A program made the position numbers and the translations under genes. The notes below the pieces were generated by a model that saw only the letters and a program-made list of their open reading frames with translations, was not told where the DNA came from and searched no databases. A stretch of 10,966 nucleotides of DNA from Bdellovibrionota bacterium FG-1 (GTDB lineage: Bacteria; Bdellovibrionota; UBA1018), in the NCBI GenBank assembly GCA_051382295.1, contig JBBCAW010000047.1, positions 1 to 10,966 of the forward strand. The letters run 5' to 3'. Shown one piece after another: positions 79 to 10,925 of the stretch; the stretch's first letter is position 1, and each line of letters starts with the position of its first letter.

Positions 79-107
79 AAAAAAAAGCCACCTAGAGGGG
101 TGGCTTT
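79..107 (-). terminator. Intrinsic terminator, probably the original (displaced) terminator of tRNA-Glu
   Basis: Stem AAAGCCACC (84..92) / GGTGGCTTT (99..107) with a 6-nt loop. The A8 run at 79..86 gives a U8 tail on the - strand. It starts about 10 nt beyond the left att core in tRNA orientation. Confidence 0.8.
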
Positions 108-116
108 GTAAAAAAT

Positions 117-127
117 AAATTGGCGTC
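117..127. repeat. att core, tRNA-distal copy (AAATTGGCGTC)
   Basis: Exact match to 10846..10856, extending to 13/14 (AAATTGGCGTCCCC vs AAATTGGCGTCTCC). On the - strand it reads GGGGACGCCAATTT, a tRNA-Glu-like 3' end. Confidence 0.85.
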
Positions 128-367
128 CCCTGGCGGCTGATCTCCGGACCGAGTGTATTGAATACGCTGCATAGGTAACGCCCAGTTCTGAAAGACGTTT
201 CCCACATGTTCCCGCAAATGGCAAGACGCTCCCGCAATTGATCCCGGGAGCGTTCCCGAACACATTGGACCACTTGGAACCGTCGCTAGTCCGAATAGAC
301 TGAGCATGATAAGGCTAAGTCGCAAGCACATAACTACCCGCATCACCCCCCGTGGAGGAAGATTTCA

Positions 368-601
368 ATGAGCCAAAATCCTTGTCAGCACGCCCACAAA
401 AAAGTAACGCATCTTCCCGAACTGGGAGGTCCAGGCGTTCAGCACGTCGAAACAATGTGCAGACTGAAAATGAGAAGCCAGGCCGACCAACTCCAAGTGT
501 ACCAGGCCCTGTTCGCAAAACATCTTGAGGGCAGCATGCTCAATAACACGTGCCCAGTGGCGGCTAGCGGCAAGTGGGCAGCCTGTCCTTTCAATACCTA
601 A
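368..601 (+). CDS. Small hypothetical protein, 77 aa, Cys/His-containing
   Basis: ATG with a good Shine-Dalgarno GGAGGA at 354..359 (8-nt spacing). It fills the gap between the left end and the XRE gene. No family recognised. Confidence 0.6.
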   Translation: MSQNPCQHAHKKVTHLPELGGPGVQHVETMCRLKMRSQADQLQVYQALFAKHLEGSMLNNTCPVAASGKWAACPFNT

Positions 602-667
602 TATGGCTGAATTTGTTCCCGGCCATTCGGCGACCATGCGTTACTACGCTTGGCTGGGATAACCGGG

Positions 668-898
668 CTATTTCTTCCGTGAAACTAATTCGACCTGTCG
701 GATTAGGTCGCTGACCGGACACCCAAGGGCCTTTGCGAGGGCGAATAGAGTTGTGAGGGTCGGCTGCTTGACCCCTCGTTCGAGCATCGAAACAAATGTC
801 CGGTCCACGTTGGAGCGGAAAGCCAACTCTTCTTGGGACAGGTTTCGGGCATTGCGATATTGTCGAAGCACAGTGCCGAACCTCTTTTTTAAATCCAT
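668..898 (-). CDS. XRE/HTH_3 transcriptional regulator, R-M controller (C protein)-like
   Basis: FGTVLRQYRNARNLSQEELAFRSNVDRTFVSMLERGVKQPTL matches the C-protein HTH pattern (SQE.LA...DRT[YF]...ERG). A C-box lies upstream. Confidence 0.9.
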   Translation of the reverse strand: MDLKKRFGTVLRQYRNARNLSQEELAFRSNVDRTFVSMLERGVKQPTLTTLFALAKALGCPVSDLIRQVELVSRKK

Positions 899-918
899 CC
901 GCTTCAGGTTCGGCTGAG

Positions 919-950
919 TGTGACTAGCGGTCCACGGACTATAGTCTACA
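919..950 (-). promoter_or_regulatory. C-box-type double operator
   Basis: The - strand reads TGTA-GACTATAGTC-CGTG-GACCGCTAGTC-ACA: a perfect palindrome at 937..946, a central CGTG and a degenerate second site, ending 20 nt before the ATG at 898. Confidence 0.8.
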
Positions 951-996
951 AACGAGATTGCCTATTGCTCCGAAAACAGGTACGACACTGCACTTT

Positions 997-1377
997 ATGA
1001 CGAAGGCCACCGAACACCGTAAGTCAGTTTTAATAGTCGAGGACAACCCGCATATCGGGGATGCGACGCTCCAGTTTCTCACTATTGAGGGGTTCACTGC
1101 GGTCTTGGTCGCTAATGGCCAAGAGGCTCTTGAAGCCATCCCAAATCTCAATGACCTTGGACTGATCCTTTTGGATTTGATGATGCCAGTGCTTAGTGGT
1201 CGGGAGTTCTTACAAGAGAGAATGAAGTCCTCGGCAATGATGGCTATTCCCGTTTACATCGTTTCTACGATGGCTCAGGAGAGCGACCTAACGACGTTAA
1301 ACGCTACCGGGGTGCTACCGAAGCCGACCGATTTGATGGACTTGCTCGCTACAGTTCGTCGGTACTGCGAAGGTTAA
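997..1377 (+). CDS. Stand-alone response regulator receiver (CheY-like) protein
   Basis: VLIVED acidic pocket, LILLDLMMP phosphoacceptor Asp, conserved S/T (IVST) and KP motif, with no output domain. ATG at 997 is preferred over the 958 start in the ORF track. Confidence 0.9.
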   Translation: MTKATEHRKSVLIVEDNPHIGDATLQFLTIEGFTAVLVANGQEALEAIPNLNDLGLILLDLMMPVLSGREFLQERMKSSAMMAIPVYIVSTMAQESDLTTLNATGVLPKPTDLMDLLATVRRYCEG

Positions 1378-1595
1378 TTGTGCCCGGGCACATGATGACC
1401 TGAAGGTTGGCCCTTTGACTGGTACGGGCAAGAACGGCATAGCCTTGATGTGCTCTGGGTGTTTAACGGGCCTGTCCTTGCGACCAAGCCTCCCTGAATC
1501 CAGTTCGAGTCGCCCAGTGAAATTCGCCAAAACCGTTTTCCTCCTGAAGGGGAAAGAGACTTCGCAAAGTGTGTCCCGTGCCGCGAGTTGAACGC

Positions 1596-2006
1596 TTAAG
1601 CCCACCCCAGATGCTGAAACACCGCCACAAATCCGAAGTAGATAGCCGAGCCAAGGAGCAGCATCCCAATGTTGGCCATTGGATTCGCAGAGGGGGTCCG
1701 GCCACTCGCGTGGTAGCGGCGAACCATCTCCCCGGACAATGCACCGACCATGAAAATGAGGAGCCCATAGGTTTGAAGCATTCGATGCTTTGACAGCGCA
1801 CTCGCCAGGACCGCCAGACCAAGCACTTGAAATCCGATGACGTAGTAGCCCTTCGCAAAATAGTACCAAAACCAGAATATCGCGGCCCAGATGTTGAATC
1901 TCTTCGAGGCCAGCGGGCTCGTCGCTCCGTCCTGGGTAGTATTCAGCGATTGGCCTTCAGTCTTCCCCTCCCGAGGGGAATCGGTCGTGTCAGACATAGG
2001 CTTCAC
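1596..2006 (-). CDS. Small multi-pass membrane protein, DUF2628-like
   Basis: FNIWAAIFWFWYYFAKG motif followed by several hydrophobic segments. The GTG start overlaps the stop of the upstream gene (GTGA); an alternative ATG is at 1997. Confidence 0.7.
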   Translation of the reverse strand: MKPMSDTTDSPREGKTEGQSLNTTQDGATSPLASKRFNIWAAIFWFWYYFAKGYYVIGFQVLGLAVLASALSKHRMLQTYGLLIFMVGALSGEMVRRYHASGRTPSANPMANIGMLLLGSAIYFGFVAVFQHLGWA

Positions 2007-3463
2007 TTCTTTCTGTACTCGCCTTGGTGGGTACCCCCACTACTGCATAACACTCTGCAGTCTCCGCTTTCATCTACGTTCATCCAGTTGTTGGCAAATC
2101 TGAAATTCAGAGTGCACTTGCCATCCTTGATAACGACCGTGCCCTGTCCTTTGTAAGCTTCTGACATCACCAGATTCAAACCATCGCGCTTAAAGCTACA
2201 TCCGTGTTCCTTGTGAGAGTACTCAATATTCACCAACGTCGGACTAGACATACTGAGGTCAAAACCATGCCCGTTGTGATCCCTATACGGGCCAGGGGCG
2301 TCCCGAAGGAATGCATCGCGCTCCTTGTTCGCCTCGGCTTCGACTTGAGAAAGGGCCTTCACATCCTCGGTGGATAGTTTGTGCCCGCCTAGCTGCAGGA
2401 GTCCCGCACAGCAGCCGGGTGAGGCACCCGCCACCTCCCAAGAGATGGGTTCATCCTCACCCCGATCTTGGCTAAACTTCATCGTCATGGCGCAACCCCC
2501 GGTGTTCTTCAAATCTGAAACGAACCCTCTATCAGGCTCGGAATAATTTAGGGCGACACTCTGTTCTGAGAACGATAGGACCGTACGGTCGGATGAGCTA
2601 TTAGCGAGACATGTGCCCCGAGCACTAACTCGATATTGTGTGTCAGAAACCTTCTCGATTTTTAGGTGCTGATCTTTTGCACCATCAACTGTTGCGCCGT
2701 ATTCGCCTGGTATGTTTGCAAGAAGGCTTTGCCGTTTTTTCGTTTTTGATATTGCGTTGCAGTCGAGTTCAGTACGCTCGGTACTCTGTGGGATTTTCTC
2801 GGCAACCTTGTGTGTAAGCTGAGCAAGTATCTCGAAAGCAACCTTTTCGCTCTCGCCGATATTTTTGGTTTTTTGTTTCCGACCATTCATTTCAACCGAT
2901 TTCAGAACGAATGATTTGGACTCGTCGGCGATAGAATCATGCTCCAGGTCAAAATCCAGTGTGGAAGTCTTCAAGGTCAGTGTCGCGCCACGGGGCGTTT
3001 TGCTATATTTCTTGAATGCTCCGGCCTTAGATGCATAGCAGATAAACTCCTTTAGCGTGTGTACGACCTGAGGAAGCGTCGTTGCCACCCTCGTTTCCCA
3101 GTCTGAGTCGGCCACACCGGCTTGGGTTTTGTATTTTGCGCAGTCGGCGGTCTGACCTGTAGCCGCTATTTCGCCTCTCTTTTCGTCGATAGCGTCCTCT
3201 ATTTCAGTGGTGAGCTTAACAGCTTCATTGCTGTCGCCATTTATCTCGCGAACCTCGCAACGAATCTCTTCAAGGCGGCGTAGGTTTGGTTTATCGGCCT
3301 TCATCGCTCCGAGTTCGTCCCTGAGTTTGCGCAAGGGAATAGTTTCCTGATCGGATTGGGCGTTCTGTTTCTCCGCCAGAATCTGTTTTGTTGATTTGGC
3401 CTCGACTGACGAGGAGACCATAAAGGCAGTGAGAACAGCCAAAACTATGTGTCTTGAGATCAT
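2003..3463 (-). CDS. Secreted/periplasmic Cys-rich hypothetical protein, 486 aa
   Basis: SD AAGGAGG, Sec signal peptide (MISRHIVLAVLTAFMVSSSVEA|K), 12 Cys, long open frame. Confidence 0.85.
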   Translation of the reverse strand: MISRHIVLAVLTAFMVSSSVEAKSTKQILAEKQNAQSDQETIPLRKLRDELGAMKADKPNLRRLEEIRCEVREINGDSNEAVKLTTEIEDAIDEKRGEIAATGQTADCAKYKTQAGVADSDWETRVATTLPQVVHTLKEFICYASKAGAFKKYSKTPRGATLTLKTSTLDFDLEHDSIADESKSFVLKSVEMNGRKQKTKNIGESEKVAFEILAQLTHKVAEKIPQSTERTELDCNAISKTKKRQSLLANIPGEYGATVDGAKDQHLKIEKVSDTQYRVSARGTCLANSSSDRTVLSFSEQSVALNYSEPDRGFVSDLKNTGGCAMTMKFSQDRGEDEPISWEVAGASPGCCAGLLQLGGHKLSTEDVKALSQVEAEANKERDAFLRDAPGPYRDHNGHGFDLSMSSPTLVNIEYSHKEHGCSFKRDGLNLVMSEAYKGQGTVVIKDGKCTLNFRFANNWMNVDESGDCRVLCSSGGTHQGEYRKK

Positions 3464-3481
3464 ATATTATCCTCCTTGAAA

Positions 3482-4156
3482 CTATTCACTGGCTGGCTTC
3501 CGACCAGACTTGTCTTCATCTCGAATCGCAAAGGCGTCATCCAGCGAGTGCTCGTGCCGTCGGATGACTTTGCCCACGTTTCCCTCGGAAGTGACCGTCG
3601 ATTGCCCCTGGTATCGCTTGGCTGGTAGTCCCGCCTTTAGTCTTGCTTGGCCCATCTTGCGTTCGCAGTCTTCGCTCTGCGTTCGGACGGTCTTGACCAT
3701 CTTCATCAGCGTGGTCTGGTAGTTTCGTTCGATTTGAATACGCTTGAGGAAGTCTTCCTCGGATTTGAAGGCGAGATTGCCATTTTCAGTTAAGCCAAAC
3801 TCCTCCTTTACCGCAGCAGTCTGCTTCATATTATCGACTTCGGGTAAGGGGGTTACCTCGCCGGTGCCGCCCAGCCTGGGGTCGGCCACATCCTCGCGGC
3901 ACCACTTGAGCATGTGATACTCGTGGGCTAGCTCATCCTCATACCGGGAGTTCGACCACTGGGTTCCGCGCAGTTCATCGGCGGCGTTAGTCTGCTTCTG
4001 GATGGTGACCTCACCGTTCTTTAGGCCGATGTTGCCCTGGGCCGACTCTCCCTTGGCATCTATCTCGGTATCGAGCTTCCGGGGTCCGGTTGAGCAAGCC
4101 ATGACGAACACCAAGCAAAAAGCCGAGGCAATCGTACCGGCAATATATTGTTTCAT
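3482..4156 (-). CDS. Putative lipoprotein, 224 aa
   Basis: SD AGGAG, and a signal peptide ending in lipobox-like VMAC (Cys21) followed by ST. The predicted helical body has two further Cys. Confidence 0.85.
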   Translation of the reverse strand: MKQYIAGTIASAFCLVFVMACSTGPRKLDTEIDAKGESAQGNIGLKNGEVTIQKQTNAADELRGTQWSNSRYEDELAHEYHMLKWCREDVADPRLGGTGEVTPLPEVDNMKQTAAVKEEFGLTENGNLAFKSEEDFLKRIQIERNYQTTLMKMVKTVRTQSEDCERKMGQARLKAGLPAKRYQGQSTVTSEGNVGKVIRRHEHSLDDAFAIRDEDKSGRKPASE

Positions 4157-4310
4157 AATGACGCTCCTATCTCAGACTTCGTTAAGACAGCACACAAATA
4201 CACGAGCAGCATGTACGGGTATCGGAAGACACCTTCCTAAACTTGACCTTCTTTAACAATTCCTTCCCATAGGAAGAGAATGACAGACCAAAGCTCCGAC
4301 CATTGGAGCT

Positions 4311-4544
4311 ATGAGCAAAGCAAAGACCAAAGAAGAGCTGTTTTTGGAACGCCTTGGAAAGCATATCGCCCAGGTGAGGAAGGCGAAGGGATACTCCCAG
4401 GACCGGATATACCTGGAAGGCGGCTTCTCTCGCGGTACCATGAGCAAGATCGAAAACGGTTTGGTGAACCCGGGCATTTGGACGCTGAAGAGAATCGCTG
4501 AAACCATCGGCGTTCCGCTGAAGAGGCTTGTGGACTTCGAGTAG
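4311..4544 (+). CDS. XRE/HTH_3 transcriptional regulator
   Basis: LGKHIAQVRKAKGYSQDRI...SRGTMSKIENGLVNPGIWTLKRIAETIGV is a typical XRE HTH. It is divergent from the lipoprotein operon. Confidence 0.9.
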   Translation: MSKAKTKEELFLERLGKHIAQVRKAKGYSQDRIYLEGGFSRGTMSKIENGLVNPGIWTLKRIAETIGVPLKRLVDFE

Positions 4545-4555
4545 TCGATTGAGAC

Positions 4556-4828
4556 TCACGATTTCCGCCTTCCCTGACGCCGTGATGCCTCCTCGTCCAG
4601 TTGGAGCGCGTGTTCGGCGATTTTGGTGCTAATCTCGTTGATGATGGCGGCAAGCCCTCGGTTGACCTCCTCGGCATCGAGTTCGGAGTACTCGGGGTCG
4701 CGTTGGTGCTCGATGAGAAACCCTAGCCCCCGGAGTTTCGCGGCTTCGAGGCCGAGGCTGTACCAGACGGGGTTGGCATCCGCACCCACCCCGGAATCGT
4801 TCGTTTTCGGAGTGCGTTTTCTAGGCAT
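4556..4828 (-). CDS. Hypothetical protein, ~90 aa, predicted helical
   Basis: ATG at 4828 has SD AGGAGG (4834..4839) inside the end of the resolvase gene, with an 8-nt overlap suggesting coupling. No family recognised. Confidence 0.7.
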   Translation of the reverse strand: MPRKRTPKTNDSGVGADANPVWYSLGLEAAKLRGLGFLIEHQRDPEYSELDAEEVNRGLAAIINEISTKIAEHALQLDEEASRRQGRRKS

Positions 4829-5468
4829 CGTAACCTCCTGAATTCCCATCCCCGGCGGATGGGCTTTCTGTACACAATTTCGGAGTGGCCAAAGCCCGGC
4901 CTACCGCCCCCGCCGACACCCCCAAGCGTTTCTGAATCTGAGACCAACTGAGTCCCTGGGCTCGAAGGCCTTTGATAGCGGCGTCGTTGATTCGCTTGGG
5001 TCTACCAAGTGTCTTGCCAATCTTTCTAGCGTGGGCCAGCCCCATCAGGGTCCGTTCGCGAATAATGTCGCGCTCGAACTCCGCGAACGATGAGATTAGA
5101 TTTCCGAGAAGACGCCCTGCGCTTGTAGTGAGATCCACCTGCTCCTTGATGCTGACAAATTGAACCCCAAGCTCGGCTAGTTCTTGAAGGAGCACGACCA
5201 TGCCACGCATGCTCCGAAACATTCTGTCGAGCTTGAGCACGACGATAACGTCGATTCGACGTGACCTTGCCAGCGCGAGCAGCTGCTTGAGCCCCGGGCG
5301 CGCATCGGAGCCGCCCGAGTAACCCTCGTCCACCAGCTCTGAAGTAATCTCCCAACCGCGAGCAGCGGAATACCGCCGCAACTCCTCGACCTGGATTTGC
5401 GCGTTTTGATCGGTAGTTGAGACCCTTGAGTAGCAACAGGCCCGAAGTTTTCGATCTGATGGAGCCAT
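4821..5468 (-). CDS. Small serine recombinase (resolvase/invertase family) with C-terminal HTH
   Basis: YSRVST with the catalytic Ser, VLKLDRMFRS, FAEFERDIIRERT..GL, LGRP, then an HTH (GLSWSQIQKRLGVSAGAVGRAL). SD AAGGAGG. Confidence 0.95.
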   Translation of the reverse strand: MAPSDRKLRACCYSRVSTTDQNAQIQVEELRRYSAARGWEITSELVDEGYSGGSDARPGLKQLLALARSRRIDVIVVLKLDRMFRSMRGMVVLLQELAELGVQFVSIKEQVDLTTSAGRLLGNLISSFAEFERDIIRERTLMGLAHARKIGKTLGRPKRINDAAIKGLRAQGLSWSQIQKRLGVSAGAVGRALATPKLCTESPSAGDGNSGGYDA

Positions 5469-5650
5469 AATAGCCTCCTTTCCGTCGGCAATCGAAGCCG
5501 CACATACCCGATAATTATCCTCGGGAATGTTTATGAAGTCCTCTTAAATCCTTGAATTGACTTAACAACCAGAAAGGCTTGAAAAAATCCTCCAAAGTCG
5601 CGGGTGACTTGCCCAGGTTCGTACGTTCTATAGTGTAGGGGGATACGTTA

Positions 5651-6451
5651 ATGACCGAATTCAAGAATGCGCGCGAAATCGTCGCCGCAATGTGGGGTCG
5701 CATCTGGGAGCTGCATAAGATCGGCGAGGGTCTTGGACCGGCGACCGCCCGCGTGACAAAAGACCTCGGACCATCCGCCATAAGCAGCTATCTGACAATC
5801 CTTGCCGATTTGACTGACCAGATTCCCCATCGCAAGGAACTTGAAGAGCTGGAGCGGATTTCTGGGAAGCCGATTTTGCGGGACGTTGTCGATGCCCTCG
5901 ATCTGCGGAAGGCATTAGAATTCCGAGACACTGAGTTGGATGATGGCACCCCAATACGATGTACAATATGGATGCGCGCTGATTCTCACCTTGGCCCAGA
6001 TGAAAAAAGAAATGCGTTCGTGGCCGTTGGTGTCCGGCCTTTCGACAAGCGCGCAAATATCCGGGACCAGTCCAAAGCGCCTCTCCTCTGGGCGAGGAAA
6101 GAGCACCGTAATATTTGGCAGCGTGATATTAAGCAAAACAAGCTACGGGCTAACAAGCAAGGCGGTGTACATCTTGCCACTAAAAGAATTGCTGAAGCGG
6201 CACAAACTATCTCTGAGCAGTGGGACATAGCTAAGAAGCACGCAAGCAAGTTGATCGAAAAACGCCTGACGAAAGAGATCGAATCTGATTTCGAGAAACG
6301 ATGTCATGACCTCCTGTCTCGGCCCCATGTTTGCCTTGCTGATATCCTAAATTGGCGAATTGCACTTGATGCCGAAATCTGGGGGCTTGCTGACTACAGT
6401 CCTAAGTTCTCCGCACACCAAGCCAAAATGATGACACAGAAAACGAAATAG
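5651..6451 (+). CDS. Hypothetical protein, 266 aa
   Basis: Long ORF with SD-like GGGGGA upstream. It is the first gene of the + strand core and has a basic helical C-terminal half. No family recognised. Confidence 0.75.
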   Translation: MTEFKNAREIVAAMWGRIWELHKIGEGLGPATARVTKDLGPSAISSYLTILADLTDQIPHRKELEELERISGKPILRDVVDALDLRKALEFRDTELDDGTPIRCTIWMRADSHLGPDEKRNAFVAVGVRPFDKRANIRDQSKAPLLWARKEHRNIWQRDIKQNKLRANKQGGVHLATKRIAEAAQTISEQWDIAKKHASKLIEKRLTKEIESDFEKRCHDLLSRPHVCLADILNWRIALDAEIWGLADYSPKFSAHQAKMMTQKTK

Positions 6452-6467
6452 CGCTTCGGCTGACCAA

Positions 6468-6494
6468 CGTCGTTCCCGTCGTTTCCGTCGATTC
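6468..6494. repeat. Three tandem imperfect 9-mers (CGTCGTTCC CGTCGTTTC CGTCGATTC)
   Basis: Read directly in the intergenic region upstream of the putative replication genes. Confidence 0.7.
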
Positions 6495-6755
6495 CACGAC
6501 CATCTTCTACCCCACCACCGCACATCCAGTCCTTGGATTTGCAGAATTTTGCCACCTTAACTACCTCAACCACATTTTGAATATATCTCCGCGAGTCGTG
6601 ACTTTGTCCCGACGCCGCAGCGGCGGCTATTTGATTCGATGGTCAAACCCGTACTTGCGGAATTTTGCCAGCACCAGAATCGGCGTCGCAACTGTGGCCA
6701 GTATAGCGAAATCGCCGGGTACAATTCCAGGCATAAAACAAAAGGAAGAGAAAAA

Positions 6756-7172
6756 ATGAAAGTAGAAATGATCAACCGTCCGTCAAAAACGATGAACAAC
6801 AATGAATGTTCCAGTGCTGAGGACCGAAGATATCAACCCAGCTTTGCCGAGGCCCCTAGTTGGAACCGTCGCAGGTATCGCGCACCATTTGGACTGGTAA
6901 GTGTACTGCCGCACTACTCTGAAAAAGGTACCGAGTGCGTTCGTTTGTCTATGCGGGCTCACGATGGGCCGCATGCAGGGGAAGTCCTGGATCAATTTTT
7001 GCCGGTGGCGGGATATGGGGCTGACCGTCTGAAGCAATTCCTGGATATCTTAATTCCCGGATACAAGGGTGAGCCTTTCAATGGCGGCCAGCTCATTGGA
7101 AAGAAATTTTTCGCCAAGGTTGAGGCCCAAGGAAACTTCCTGGTCATTACGCCCCTCGGCCTCCTTGCCTAA
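6756..7172 (+). CDS. Putative DUF669-like single-stranded DNA-binding protein
   Basis: The pattern SEKGTECVRLSMRAHDGPHAGEVLDQFL...RLKQFLDIL...QLIGKKFFAKV resembles phage DUF669/OB-fold proteins. ATG at 6756 follows AAAGGAAG, and the gene lies immediately upstream of the helicase-like gene. Confidence 0.55.
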   Translation: MKVEMINRPSKTMNNNECSSAEDRRYQPSFAEAPSWNRRRYRAPFGLVSVLPHYSEKGTECVRLSMRAHDGPHAGEVLDQFLPVAGYGADRLKQFLDILIPGYKGEPFNGGQLIGKKFFAKVEAQGNFLVITPLGLLA

Positions 7173-7263
7173 CAAATAATAAAAGTGATTTCCGGTGGAG
7201 GCAGCATGTCGCCCTAACAGGCAGATGCCTCCACCGACTCCCACAGCTACGAACGAAAGATTT

Positions 7264-8763
7264 ATGGAAAATAATATTCAGAGCCCCGTTACGAGTAAGA
7301 AAGAAAAGAGAAAAGAGAAGCCACAACTCACGTTGGTGGAAACAGAGCATGCCATCGAGGTCGCTGGCGTCCCATTTCTGCGTCTTTTCGTAGACCAGTT
7401 TTCGGAAAGCCACGCGGCATACCTCAGCCGGGATGGCCACCCAGGAGTAGCTCCAATCCGCAGCCAGCTTTGCCGGTCCTACATTCGGCAATACCTCTAC
7501 GAGCAGGCTGGCCTCCTGTTGACCAAAAAGCATCTTGAAGAAATCGTAGAAATAGTTGAGGGATTTGCGCTAGTCCGCAACGACAAAATAGACCTTTGCA
7601 TCCGAGTGGCGCGGGACAATGCCGACATCCTCGTAAACGGGATGCCCTTGATCTACCGAATTTCCCCTGGCGTCTGGACAGAAGACAGTTCTGGAATTCT
7701 AAAATTTCGGACACCTTCGACAGCGAAGGCTTTGGCTCGCCCCATTGAAGGGGGGGACCCAAAAAAGGTATTCAATTTTGTGAACATCGAGGATGAGGAC
7801 GAGAAACTGCTCCTTCTTGTCTACCTCGTTGCATCGTTCGTTCCTGATATTCCGCATCCCATATTAGCGATCCACGGCCCACAGGGTTCCGGAAAAAGTT
7901 CGCTGCTCCGATTTCTAACTCGCATCATCGACCCCAATACCGCCGAAGAGGTCCATCTGCATGGAGAGGTGGAGTTTGTCCAATCCGCTTCCGAAAGGTG
8001 GGTTGTTGGCATCGACAACGTAACGAATATCTCTGATCGAATCTCCGACCTGCTTTGTAAATTCGTCACGGGAGTATCATTCACCAAACGGAAGCTCTAC
8101 ACCGACAACGACCAATTTGTCCGAAGCTTTAAGCGGGTGGTGATCCTGAACGGTATCGGCCTCCCGATGAGGAAGCCCGACATTCTTGATCGAACCATCA
8201 TCATTGGTCTCAGCCGTATTAAGAGCGACATGCGAAAATCGGAGTCCTCTCTTGAAGAACAGTTTGAGAATGTCCGGGGCGAAGTTGTGGGTGGACTATT
8301 TGACTTGCTGGCCAAGGCTCTTGCCATACTGCCAACTCTGGGTAAGACGCCGCTTCCTCGTCTGGCCGATTTTGGAAACTGGGGACGCGCCATTGCCGTA
8401 GCAGCAGGATATAGCGAAAAGGATTTTGTTCGGGCCTATAGCAAGAATATCCAGCGGCAGGTCGAAGAAGCTCTCGAAGCCTCCCCTCTGGCAACTGTGA
8501 TCCAATACTACCTTGACCCCGAGAGGGAACGATACGGCAAGGACAACCGCCTTGAAGGGACGCCAACCCATGTGCTCCGGGAACTCAAAAATATTGCGCC
8601 CCAGGCAGGAATTGAGGAAAGGGTGCTGCCGAAATCTGCGCGAGGTTTAGGCCGTGGACTGATGGAGGTAAAAGCTACTCTGGAAGAGTACGGCTATGTC
8701 GTTGAAAGGAGCCGGGGCAAAGACCGCAGAATCCAAATCCTCCCCCCAAAACCTACAACATGA
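7264..8763 (+). CDS. P-loop ATPase, probable replicative helicase of a mobile element, with a C-terminal winged-helix-like region
   Basis: Walker A GPQGSGKS, Walker B VVGIDN, RKLYTD, sensor-like VILNG and Arg-finger-like PDILDR. No primase domain is evident. ATG at 7264 is preferred because the 7195 GTG lies inside a hairpin. Confidence 0.75.
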   Translation: MENNIQSPVTSKKEKRKEKPQLTLVETEHAIEVAGVPFLRLFVDQFSESHAAYLSRDGHPGVAPIRSQLCRSYIRQYLYEQAGLLLTKKHLEEIVEIVEGFALVRNDKIDLCIRVARDNADILVNGMPLIYRISPGVWTEDSSGILKFRTPSTAKALARPIEGGDPKKVFNFVNIEDEDEKLLLLVYLVASFVPDIPHPILAIHGPQGSGKSSLLRFLTRIIDPNTAEEVHLHGEVEFVQSASERWVVGIDNVTNISDRISDLLCKFVTGVSFTKRKLYTDNDQFVRSFKRVVILNGIGLPMRKPDILDRTIIIGLSRIKSDMRKSESSLEEQFENVRGEVVGGLFDLLAKALAILPTLGKTPLPRLADFGNWGRAIAVAAGYSEKDFVRAYSKNIQRQVEEALEASPLATVIQYYLDPERERYGKDNRLEGTPTHVLRELKNIAPQAGIEERVLPKSARGLGRGLMEVKATLEEYGYVVERSRGKDRRIQILPPKPTT

Positions 8764-8846
8764 AAACGAGGTGAAAAGAAAACAAGAGCAACGGAGAGCG
8801 GCCCCGGCCACGTCCTCGCAAATTGGCGGGGTCGCTAACCAACGCG

Positions 8847-9290
8847 ATGGATACACAGAAACCCCCAATACATCCGCTTCCGATGGGCGAGCAAAAAGTT
8901 TGCGTGGCTTGCGCCCAGTCGCTCCTGCTCTCTGAATTCTATCGGAAGGAAGCGAGGGACGCGACCCGACCACGTTGGGAGCGTGTTTGTAAACATTGTA
9001 AGAGGAGCCAACGGCGGAAAGCTGCCCATAGGAAAAAAGAAACGTCCCATGCCAATGCTGCCGACACAGCAAAAACGCCCAGCCTCGAAAATGGCGAGGT
9101 ACCGATGCTACGTGTGGACAGTATTTTAAAAGCAAATTTGGAGACAGAGGAGTTCCGGCGAGTCTTGTCAGTGTTCCAAACACTTCTCGGAATTGAAACA
9201 AGAACTACAAGACTCCAAGGGGGCGACACTCGGACCCGATTAAACTCGCGGAAAGCTATAAAATCGGATTTAAGGGAGCCCGAAGTATGA
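8847..9290 (+). CDS. Zinc-finger (CxxC...CxxC) basic protein
   Basis: KVCVAC...SEFY...VCKHCKR followed by a K/R-rich stretch. Its stop overlaps the integrase start (ATGA, 9287..9290). The start is uncertain (8847 or 8883). Confidence 0.7.
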   Translation: MDTQKPPIHPLPMGEQKVCVACAQSLLLSEFYRKEARDATRPRWERVCKHCKRSQRRKAAHRKKETSHANAADTAKTPSLENGEVPMLRVDSILKANLETEEFRRVLSVFQTLLGIETRTTRLQGGDTRTRLNSRKAIKSDLREPEV

Positions 9291-10906
9291 GCCATACATG
9301 GGAGCTAGATAGAAACAAAAAAGCCATCGGCATCGTTAGGGTAAGCAGCCATCGACAAAAGGATGGTGGCTCTCCAGACTTGCAAAAAGAAAAACTTCAA
9401 CTGTACGCCGCCGAAAATGACCTGAACCTTGTCCGCGTTGGGAGCATCGTCGAATCGGCAAAAACGACCGATGGCCGAAAAAAGTATTCCGCTGAAATAT
9501 TGCATGCGCTCGACAATGATATTCGGCACGTCCTCTTTTACATGACGGACCGCGAGGCGCGGAACCTCAGCGATACTGAGTCCAACGAGCTTTTGGTATT
9601 GCAGGGTCGGATTATTATCCATTACGTTAACGACCGCAAAGTTCTCCACCAGACCAGTCCGACCTCTGATTTTTTCTCGCGGGACGTAAATGCGCTCGTC
9701 AATAAACATTTCTCGCGGGTCTTAGCGGAGAAGATGAAAGATGTGATGTTGAGGAAGGCGGAGGATGGCTGGTATCCTGGCAACCATCCCCCTCTTGGGT
9801 ACGTCCACCAAAAGCCAAAGGGCGAGAACGGACGCATCGCTAAACGTGGCTCGATAATCGTACCCAATCCGAACCCTCGTATTGTGAAGCTCGTACAAAG
9901 AGAGTTCGACCTCCGGGCAGAAGGCCTCTCGTTTGGCGAGATTCGAAAAATACTTCTTGAAGAGGGATGGGTCGAACCCAACAAGATTGGTAGCTACTCG
10001 AAGCATGGCATTGAAGCGCGGCTGAAAAACAAATTCTACTCCGGCGTCTTTGATTGGCCACAAGGGGTCGAGCACACCGGGAAGCACGAGCTAATAATCG
10101 ACCAGCGGATTCTCGGGCGTGTTAAGGCCAGCTTCGGTAAGCGTGGGGTACGCCGCCTGAGTCCGGGGGAGCAGGGTATTTTCTCGGGTGGGTGGCTCCG
10201 TTGCGCCGACCCCGCCTGCGGCCTCCAAGTAATCTACGACCCGAAGGTAAAAAAGATTAAGGCCACAGGGGAGACAAAATCCTTCCCATACTACCACTGC
10301 TCCAACTCCCGTAACATTCACCCCACGCTCGTTGGCAGGTATGTGACCGAAGAGCAGCTCTGGGCAGACTTCGCCCCCGTCGTACAAGAAATCGCTATTA
10401 GCGAGAACTTTGCGCAAGAGATTGCTGACGCTCTGAATGAGATACATGAAAAGGCAAAACAGGCGGTCAAGCGTGACATCCAGAACTACCGAGAGGGGTT
10501 AGCCAATCTCGAAAAGCGAGAGGACAAACTCTACGATGATTTGCATTCCGGAGTCCTCGACAAGACGGGGTACAAACGGCAACTCGACCGCGTCCGGGAT
10601 GAACGCCGCCGATACACCAACCTGCTCGAACAGTCCCAGCTTGCAATTAGTGACGCCTGCATGGTTACCGCCCGTAAGATACTCGGACTCGCTACCAACG
10701 CGAAATCACTCTGGAATCTGGGTACCCAAGAGGAGCGGATGGAGTATCTCAAGAATGTCTGCTCGGACCCAGTCCTAGATGGCGTAACTGTCCGATACGA
10801 AATGAAAAAACCCTTCCATACGATTGCTCGTATGAAGGGTTTTTCAAATTGGCGTCTCCACGGGGATTCGAACCCCGGTTACTCCCGTGAAAGGGGAGTG
10901 TCCTAG
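9287..10906 (+). CDS. Large serine recombinase (integrase)
   Basis: N-terminal IVRVSS catalytic motif and DREARN, recombinase domain (G.YPG..PPLGY; LKNKFYSG; GKHELII), zinc ribbon (LRCADPACG...YYHC) and a coiled coil. The last 18 codons and the stop overlap the tRNA in antisense. Confidence 0.95.
   Translation: MSHTWELDRNKKAIGIVRVSSHRQKDGGSPDLQKEKLQLYAAENDLNLVRVGSIVESAKTTDGRKKYSAEILHALDNDIRHVLFYMTDREARNLSDTESNELLVLQGRIIIHYVNDRKVLHQTSPTSDFFSRDVNALVNKHFSRVLAEKMKDVMLRKAEDGWYPGNHPPLGYVHQKPKGENGRIAKRGSIIVPNPNPRIVKLVQREFDLRAEGLSFGEIRKILLEEGWVEPNKIGSYSKHGIEARLKNKFYSGVFDWPQGVEHTGKHELIIDQRILGRVKASFGKRGVRRLSPGEQGIFSGGWLRCADPACGLQVIYDPKVKKIKATGETKSFPYYHCSNSRNIHPTLVGRYVTEEQLWADFAPVVQEIAISENFAQEIADALNEIHEKAKQAVKRDIQNYREGLANLEKREDKLYDDLHSGVLDKTGYKRQLDRVRDERRRYTNLLEQSQLAISDACMVTARKILGLATNAKSLWNLGTQEERMEYLKNVCSDPVLDGVTVRYEMKKPFHTIARMKGFSNWRLHGDSNPGYSRERGVS
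10805..10844 (-). terminator. Element-supplied intrinsic terminator for tRNA-Glu, inside the integrase CDS, possibly bidirectional
   Basis: The - strand reads AAAAACCCTTCATACGA-GCAA-TCGTATGGAAGGGTTTTTT: a 17-bp stem with one bulge, a GNRA loop and U6. It starts 5 nt after the tRNA CCA. Confidence 0.8.
10846..10856. repeat. att core, tRNA-proximal copy (AAATTGGCGTC)
   Basis: Exact match to 117..127. It spans the last 7 nt of the tRNA plus 4 nt of flank. Confidence 0.85.
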
Positions 10907-10925
10907 GCCTCTAGACGATGGAGAC
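10850..10925 (-). tRNA. tRNA-Glu (anticodon TTC)
   Basis: 76 nt: acceptor stem GTCTCCA/TGGAGAC, D arm GTCTAGAGGCCTAGGAC, anticodon arm CTCCC-CTTTCAC-GGGAG, T loop GGTTCGAATCC and encoded CCA. Confidence 0.98.

Follow-up and report, generated by a model that had tools for sequence, protein, structure and literature searches.

The analysed window is a stretch of 10,966 nucleotides that makes up the whole contig JBBCAW010000047.1 of Bdellovibrionota bacterium FG-1. Its right part is occupied by a gene encoding a large serine integrase, which is oriented head-on to a tRNA-Glu gene (Table 1). The last 18 codons of the integrase gene and its stop codon lie antisense within the tRNA-Glu gene, and the invariant tryptophan W522 of the integrase is the CCA of the tRNA read on the opposite strand. 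The product of the gene matches PF00239 and PF07508 above the cut-off and phrog_95 with an E-value of 2.7e-41. It contains a catalytic resolvase domain with the Arg-x-Ser motif, a recombinase domain and a Zn-ribbon, as is characteristic of large serine integrases. The residues R18, S20, C306, C311, C338 and H345 are invariant in 47 integrase sequences, and K508 and P509 are conserved at 90% or more among the integrase relatives. Resolvase, recombinase and Zn-ribbon/coiled-coil parts are shared with the A118 integrase and the SPbeta recombinase YokA/SprA (E-values 8.5e-10 and 6.3e-05). These proteins are distant, however, and the match stops at profile position 497-504, short of the KKPF...W stretch in which the hairpin described below is located. 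After integration, 57 nt of the integrase mRNA (10850..10906, plus strand) would be complementary to tRNA-Glu, and a state-specific RNA interaction is possible.

Table 1. Features of the integrated element and its target gene in the window
Feature	Position	Strand	Basis
Native tRNA-Glu intrinsic terminator, 9-bp stem, U8	79..107	-	fold, empty-site contig C59, L132
Left 11-bp attachment core	117..127		sequence, empty site
Other tail of the integrase, read in frame once the element is excised: WRPLAADLRTECIEYAA and a stop codon	121..174	+	translation, other left ends
Body of the element as integrated (10,729 bp counting one core)	128..10845		ORFs, profile searches
Small serine recombinase (resolvase/invertase)	4821..5468	-	Pfam, PHROG
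155-aa ORF, stop overlaps integrase start (ATGA, 9287..9290)	8823..9290	+	ORF list, PHROG
Large serine integrase (539 aa when integrated)	9287..10906	+	PF00239, PF07508, phrog_95
Dual-coding hairpin, predicted replacement intrinsic terminator of tRNA-Glu	10805..10844	-	sequence, fold, covariation in relatives
Right 11-bp attachment core, identical with the last 7 nt of the tRNA and 4 nt downstream	10846..10856		sequence, empty site
tRNA-Glu(TTC), target gene, intact after integration	10850..10925	-	tRNA call, Rfam

The body of the element encodes two XRE-type HTH proteins, a response regulator, a small resolvase, a P-loop ATPase, a Zn-finger-like ORF and several ORFs with no assigned function. 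No capsid or conjugation families were matched when 14 ORFs were searched against Pfam and 10 ORFs against PHROG. The 155-aa ORF preceding the integrase gene has a cysteine-rich part, for which PHROG gives weak endonuclease/Lar-like matches, and is a candidate for translational coupling to the integrase or for a directionality factor. Two cargo ORFs on the minus strand (2003..4156), 486 and 224 aa long, have starts that resemble signal peptides; neither has a Pfam or PHROG match. The genome also encodes a tmRNA with the tag GTADYAMAA and Rho, and its contigs C24 and C28 carry two more large serine recombinases, which are distant (23-28% identity). Six candidate stretches for relatives of the element were found in viral contigs, and none of them was confirmed.

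The boundaries of the element are evident from the direct repeats at both ends and from an empty site that rejoins the flanks. The empty site is present in the same assembly on contig C59 (L161:337-573), which shares 99.2% identity with the left flank of the window over 130 nt and 100% with the tRNA side over 121 nt. On C59 the tRNA-Glu gene is directly followed by the hairpin that stands at the left end of the window, outside the left core (-13.9 kcal/mol, z -3.74). The same native hairpin is located behind tRNA-Glu in the relative G002 (locus L132), which does not carry the element. This confirms the earlier proposal that the hairpin at the left end is the native terminator of the tRNA gene: the integration pushed it 10.7 kb away. 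The window begins and ends about 120 nt outside the cores, which resembles an assembly bubble. Since the contig is bubble-like and the empty site occurs in the same assembly, the element is probably carried by only a part of the population, and the sample probably holds both the integrated and the empty state. Read antisense, the native terminators of L131, L132, L133 and C59 encode Lys-Lys-Pro-like peptides with weak matches to the integrase C-terminus. The region beside the left core was also searched for displaced terminators in other elements. A hairpin with a U-run was found in one of three elements that have a hairpin in the integrase gene, namely that of the window, and no terminator-like hairpin with a U-run was found there in any of six elements that have none.

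The codons K507 to F519 of the integrase gene form the hairpin in question, which begins 5 nt after the CCA of the tRNA-Glu. The 5′ arm on the plus strand consists of positions 10806..10816, the bulged C10817 and positions 10818..10823, and it pairs with positions 10828..10844. Eleven outer and six inner Watson-Crick pairs are formed, and the loop (10824..10827) reads GCAA on the tRNA strand. The A6 tract at 10805..10810 of the plus strand is a U6 run on the tRNA strand (10810..10805), where it is followed by CAUUU. The preliminary description, which was made from the DNA letters of the window, reported this 17-bp bulged inverted repeat with its loop and U-run near the CCA. The sequence agrees, with the refinement that the U-run itself takes part in five of the 17 pairs, all of them A-U, leaving a terminator stem proper of 12 bp. 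The TTTTT reported at the plus-strand end of the hairpin (10840..10844) is likewise there, separated by a single C from the attachment core. The proposed folding of the RNA was also borne out, as both strands of the hairpin are stable. The 56 nt that follow the CCA have a minimum free energy of -22.4 kcal/mol (z -6.22) on the tRNA strand, and the corresponding 56 nt of the integrase strand reach -21.2 kcal/mol (z -7.00); 0 of 200 dinucleotide shuffles were as good on either strand. A consensus terminator scan calls the site on both strands, which is weak evidence since the scan found 16 sites where 13.5 were expected. In an Rfam search of the window only the tRNA was matched.

Homologous loci, most of them labelled Bdellovibrionota, were used to assess the conservation of the hairpin. 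The head-on overlap of the integrase gene with an RNA gene recurs in relatives at tRNA-Glu, Arg, Ser, Leu, Val, Ala, Asn, Met, Gln and Lys genes and at the tmRNA gene. The stretch after the CCA, or after the Trp codon, was folded, and a hairpin was regarded as strong at z <= -3.5. By this measure a strong hairpin is present in 12 of 91 integrase-bearing loci (7 of 48, 4 of 11 new rows, 0 of 15, and 1 of 17 distant loci) and in 0 of 20 control windows located 210 nt upstream. The remaining 79 loci, which include 15 of the 16 first tRNA-Glu loci, have no strong hairpin. Hairpin-less loci may be as similar to the query as hairpin-bearing ones, as is seen for L001, L002, L004 and L075 in comparison with L135. 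In the last 780 nt of three hairpin-less tRNA-Glu loci, at most weak sites at chance level were found. The hairpin is a recurrent yet optional feature of the family.

The number of 91 loci excludes L136, L140, L146 and L147, which are identical to counted rows, the plain native terminators L131-L133 with no integrase, the remnant L129, the extended L135 row and the tRNA-side insert of L018. It still contains the redundant rows L002/L003, L039/L097 and L093/L095, and the windows of L046 and L057 may be off register. Loci L152 and L156 stand outside the count as they were found by a pattern search for the hairpin arms. Two further loci were set aside: L157, which comes from the genome of the window, matches by chance within other sequence, and L153 has no tRNA. 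At L018, tRNA-Glu and the integrase gene are separated by 185 nt of inserted sequence (L018:1235-1420), which forms a strong hairpin as well (-26.8 kcal/mol). The L018 integrase ends in a second core, which is tandem use of the site. Locus L142 (2155-2220) combines an intact integrase and a strong hairpin with non-tRNA sequence behind the core, a junction that may be excised or tandem.

On the tRNA strand, the stable stem-loop stands directly before a U-rich run, as expected of an intrinsic terminator. At least five U follow the stem on this strand in 11 of the 12 strong hairpins, the exception being L149, and the tRNA strand gives the more stable fold in 10 of 12 (all except L060 and L138). 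Both the pairing and the U-run persist under sequence change within these 12 of the 91 loci, which were chosen for folding. In the register of the window the Pro-Phe codons pair with Met-Lys-Gly codons, an arrangement shared by L135, L142 and the remnant L129. In the four rows 94.1% of the cells are paired, whereas slid controls give 31-54%, and double changes are seen in 7 of the 17 pairs (0 of 500 shuffles). The loop is GNRA on the tRNA strand in all four rows, while the five residues between Phe and Lys vary. In a second register the Pro-Phe codons pair with Met-Ala codons. Its seven loci are 95.2% paired with a covariation of 0.349 (0 of 500 shuffles), whereas the pair-count and pair-type measures do not rise above the shuffles (404 and 425 of 500). 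These values come from rows picked for folding (four and seven) and are uncorrected for kinship, and L142 alone supplies five of the seven double changes. The first alignment left out L081 (z -2.93) and the misaligned L087; the second left out the window, L060 with its 3-codon insertion and L149 with a third register. Outside the count, a strong hairpin in the register of the window (-20.3 kcal/mol, z -5.4) is found at L156:1490-1545, where the serine integrase at tRNA-Asn is distant and seems to be frameshifted. The conservation of pairing that had been proposed as a check is found with compensatory changes and in at least two registers, whose independence is judged from alignments, but a strong hairpin occurs in only 12 of the 91 loci.

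The remnant L129 (1554-1790) consists of an integrase fragment of about 200 nt, located behind tRNA-Glu. It has accumulated six indels in about 165 nt upstream of the hairpin, which is intact; by a hand estimate, the chance of no indel over 40 nt at this local rate is about 0.2. Compared with the window, two synonymous sites of its hairpin have changed together, so that an A-U pair is replaced by G-C. The end of the L129 peptide matches that of P0002, the closest protein relative (83% identical). No full integrase was found with the window query in the L129 genome, which is 89% complete. The remnant is only suggestive of an element terminator that might have been adopted by the host.

It has to be considered whether the hairpin is a functionless by-product of the conserved KKPF...MKG peptide. 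By a hand count the amino acids fix 9 of the 17 pairs, which would favor this explanation, and the intact relative L152, which targets the tmRNA gene, has the outer arms and yet folds at only -11.4 kcal/mol (z -0.83). The other eight pairs depend on the synonymous choice, and all eight are Watson-Crick pairs, for which the hand count gives about 1 in 12,000 under uniform codon use. Furthermore, relatives with the same peptide differ by 14-16 kcal/mol: for KPFRILSEM, L053 folds at -16.7 and L049 at -0.5 kcal/mol, and for PFARLASW, L142 folds at -24.0 and L068 at -10.2 kcal/mol. Such pairs with and without the hairpin are a clean natural test of the origin of an overlapping code, and judged from sequence they appear more telling than the covariation statistics. 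Together with the compensatory changes, the synonymous pairs seem to largely refute the by-product explanation, which we consider scarcely probable. A hairpin in the trailer RNA could alternatively serve processing or stability, as a barrier or cleavage guide, or provide a pause that aids Rho, with no intrinsic termination. The distance of merely 5 nt from the CCA, the ability of most relatives to do without the hairpin and the presence of Rho in the host are in line with such a role. The U-run right behind the stem in 11 of 12 cases is, however, the signature of intrinsic termination and makes this role very unlikely. Large serine integrases contact about 25 bp on each side of the core. The 3′ arm of the inverted repeat lies 2-18 bp from the core, inside this contact zone, and the element has two HTH genes, so the repeat might work as DNA, either as an attachment arm or as an operator for the integrase, a directionality factor or a repressor, with the RNA fold being incidental. 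A role as a DNA site would leave the GNRA loops, the G-U wobbles and the confinement of U-runs to one strand without explanation, and likewise the several registers with free compensatory changes; we ascribe little probability to it.

The preliminary description had further suggested that the hairpin acts on both strands. A bidirectional terminator would cut the integrase mRNA at about position 10844, before either stop codon, and the resulting non-stop mRNA would be subject to tmRNA tagging, with less integrase as the consequence. Several observations are compatible with this: the integrase strand folds nearly as well as the tRNA strand, the consensus scan calls it and it ends in T5; T4 is present in L129 and L156, two broken relatives in the register of the window; and the host has tmRNA. 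This part of the earlier description did not hold up among the relatives, since four consecutive U after the integrase-strand stem occur in none of the 12 intact hairpin-bearing homologues (L135 has four of five). On the integrase strand, moreover, the loops are not GNRA and G-U pairs turn into A-C mismatches. The T5 of the window is at the same time the counterpart of an A-tract, which is found ahead of many terminators of this kind (L133, L018). As the cut would come before the core, its effect would be the same whether the element is integrated or excised. A coupled ribosome is also reported to block terminator hairpins: in E. coli, the ribosome trailing the polymerase prevents their formation according to the accessible text of PMC5021804, although this may not hold for the host. 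The accessible text of PMC13323073 does not mention Bdellovibrio. Taken together, termination of the integrase mRNA at the hairpin is unlikely.

We propose instead that the hairpin is probably an element-borne intrinsic terminator for tRNA-Glu, optional in the family, as indicated by its anatomy and by the comparative data. As the sequence shows, the element is inserted by serine-type recombination within the 11-bp core at the 3′ end of tRNA-Glu, and its attachment site lies in the last codons of its own integrase gene. RNA polymerase leaving the tRNA gene would then enter the untranslated antisense strand of the element and, after 5 nt, meet the GNRA-capped 12-bp stem and the U6 run, where intrinsic termination is predicted. 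The expected outcome is a short 3′ trailer on the tRNA precursor, as well as less antisense transcription and fewer head-on collisions in the integrase gene. The block of antisense read-through would follow from the geometry of the two genes. The earlier proposal that the hairpin restores termination of the tRNA agrees with the terminator anatomy and the comparative signature; within the family the hairpin is optional, with a strong one in only 12 of 91 loci. The conserved Lys-Lys-Pro-Phe codons already provide the U-run and the stem base, and therefore a terminator may arise when only a few codons further downstream are adjusted. In lineages with no hairpin, Rho or other signals presumably terminate transcription. 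Rho suppresses antisense transcription, as stated in the accessible text of PMC12360218, and is a plausible substitute in a host that encodes it. A mobile element with such a replacement terminator would pay little for inserting at the final bases of an essential RNA gene, as it returns both the gene end and the terminator, and it would use coding DNA that it carries anyway.

An integrase gene that spans its own attachment site is already known. According to the accessible text of PMC3146451 (McMurdie et al. 2011), the Dehalococcoides ssrA-specific islands encode DsiB, a serine integrase of about 540 aa, whose gene is opposite to the target and always overlaps the att site with its 3′ end, the stop codon being located outside the island or within the target RNA gene. 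These islands contain a second small serine recombinase and are described there as probably mobilisable, with no transfer genes. The element in the window shares the opposite-strand integrase gene overlapping the att site at its 3′ end, a likeness of layout and not of compared sequence, and it also has a small serine recombinase, as in the pairing of DsiA and DsiB. The target is tmRNA there, whereas it is tRNA-Glu here. Where the ssrA module has dsiA, recF, parB and mom, the scanned ORFs of the window gave a small resolvase and no match to RecF, ParB or Mom. The word "terminator" has no matches in the main text of PMC3146451 as far as it is available. The displacement of a tRNA terminator is described for ICEKp1, ICEclc and ICEEc1, where integration leaves the Rho-independent terminator at the distant end of the element and element-borne stem-loops behind the tRNA are regarded as a potential terminator (PMC13023037, accessible text). 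In these elements the integrase gene has the same orientation as the tRNA gene, lies about 160-200 bp downstream and is driven by the tRNA promoter, and the stem-loops lie in the integrase 5′ untranslated region. Here the genes are head-on and the hairpin lies within the coding sequence. The tycheposon preprint (10.1101/2020.12.28.424599) mentions a few serine-recombinase elements and no terminator in its accessible part. No report of a tRNA terminator located in integrase codons was found in our literature search, which covered few subscription papers. Such terminators may be discussed in the surveys that Williams and colleagues made of tRNA integration sites.

After excision, the integrase gene would end in another tail, which is encoded at the left end of the element (Table 1). 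The motif W-x5-[DE]-[LF]-R-[TN] of this tail is common to the left ends of other elements. Seven of the accepted tails came from a pattern requiring the motif, so that four tails (window, L163, L169 and L064) are independent evidence for it. From the shared motif we infer that integration swaps a conserved tail for an anti-tRNA peptide. For annotators and integrase prospectors this means that the C-terminus deduced from an integrated copy is an anti-tRNA peptide, with the conserved tail at the other end of the element. The candidate left ends L005:439, L172:10977 and L169:2195 were dropped as they had no motif or no core.

The tail of the window ends in Ala-Ala and in this resembles the host tmRNA tag. 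A C-terminal Ala-Ala is a signal for ClpXP. By analogy, the tail may be guessed to be a degron that is removed by integration; if real, it would be a degradation layer written in DNA and independent of tmRNA. A model for such a tail is provided by the mycobacteriophage BPs, in which attP lies in the repressor gene and integration strips an ssrA-like tag from the C-terminus (PMC4557955, accessible text); the protein affected is a repressor there and an integrase here. As a tentative and rather doubtful extension, the last 20 codons of the integrase gene may combine protein, attachment arm and tRNA terminator, the last of which would have been tuned repeatedly and independently and could outlive the element as a tRNA terminator of the host, as in L129. 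They would lie next to a switch of the tail, by which excision would give the conserved tail, with its Ala-Ala degron in the tRNA-Glu elements, and integration the anti-tRNA peptide. A single recombination might in this way reset both termination and the activity or stability of the integrase. Ala-Ala ends occur in two of the ten complete excised-form tails, both from tRNA-Glu elements (window and L169:735), and the other complete tails end in GF, VY, AI, YG, CA, AV, FN and GE. The L169:735 tail ends in Ala-Ala despite a two-residue difference in length from the tail of the window.
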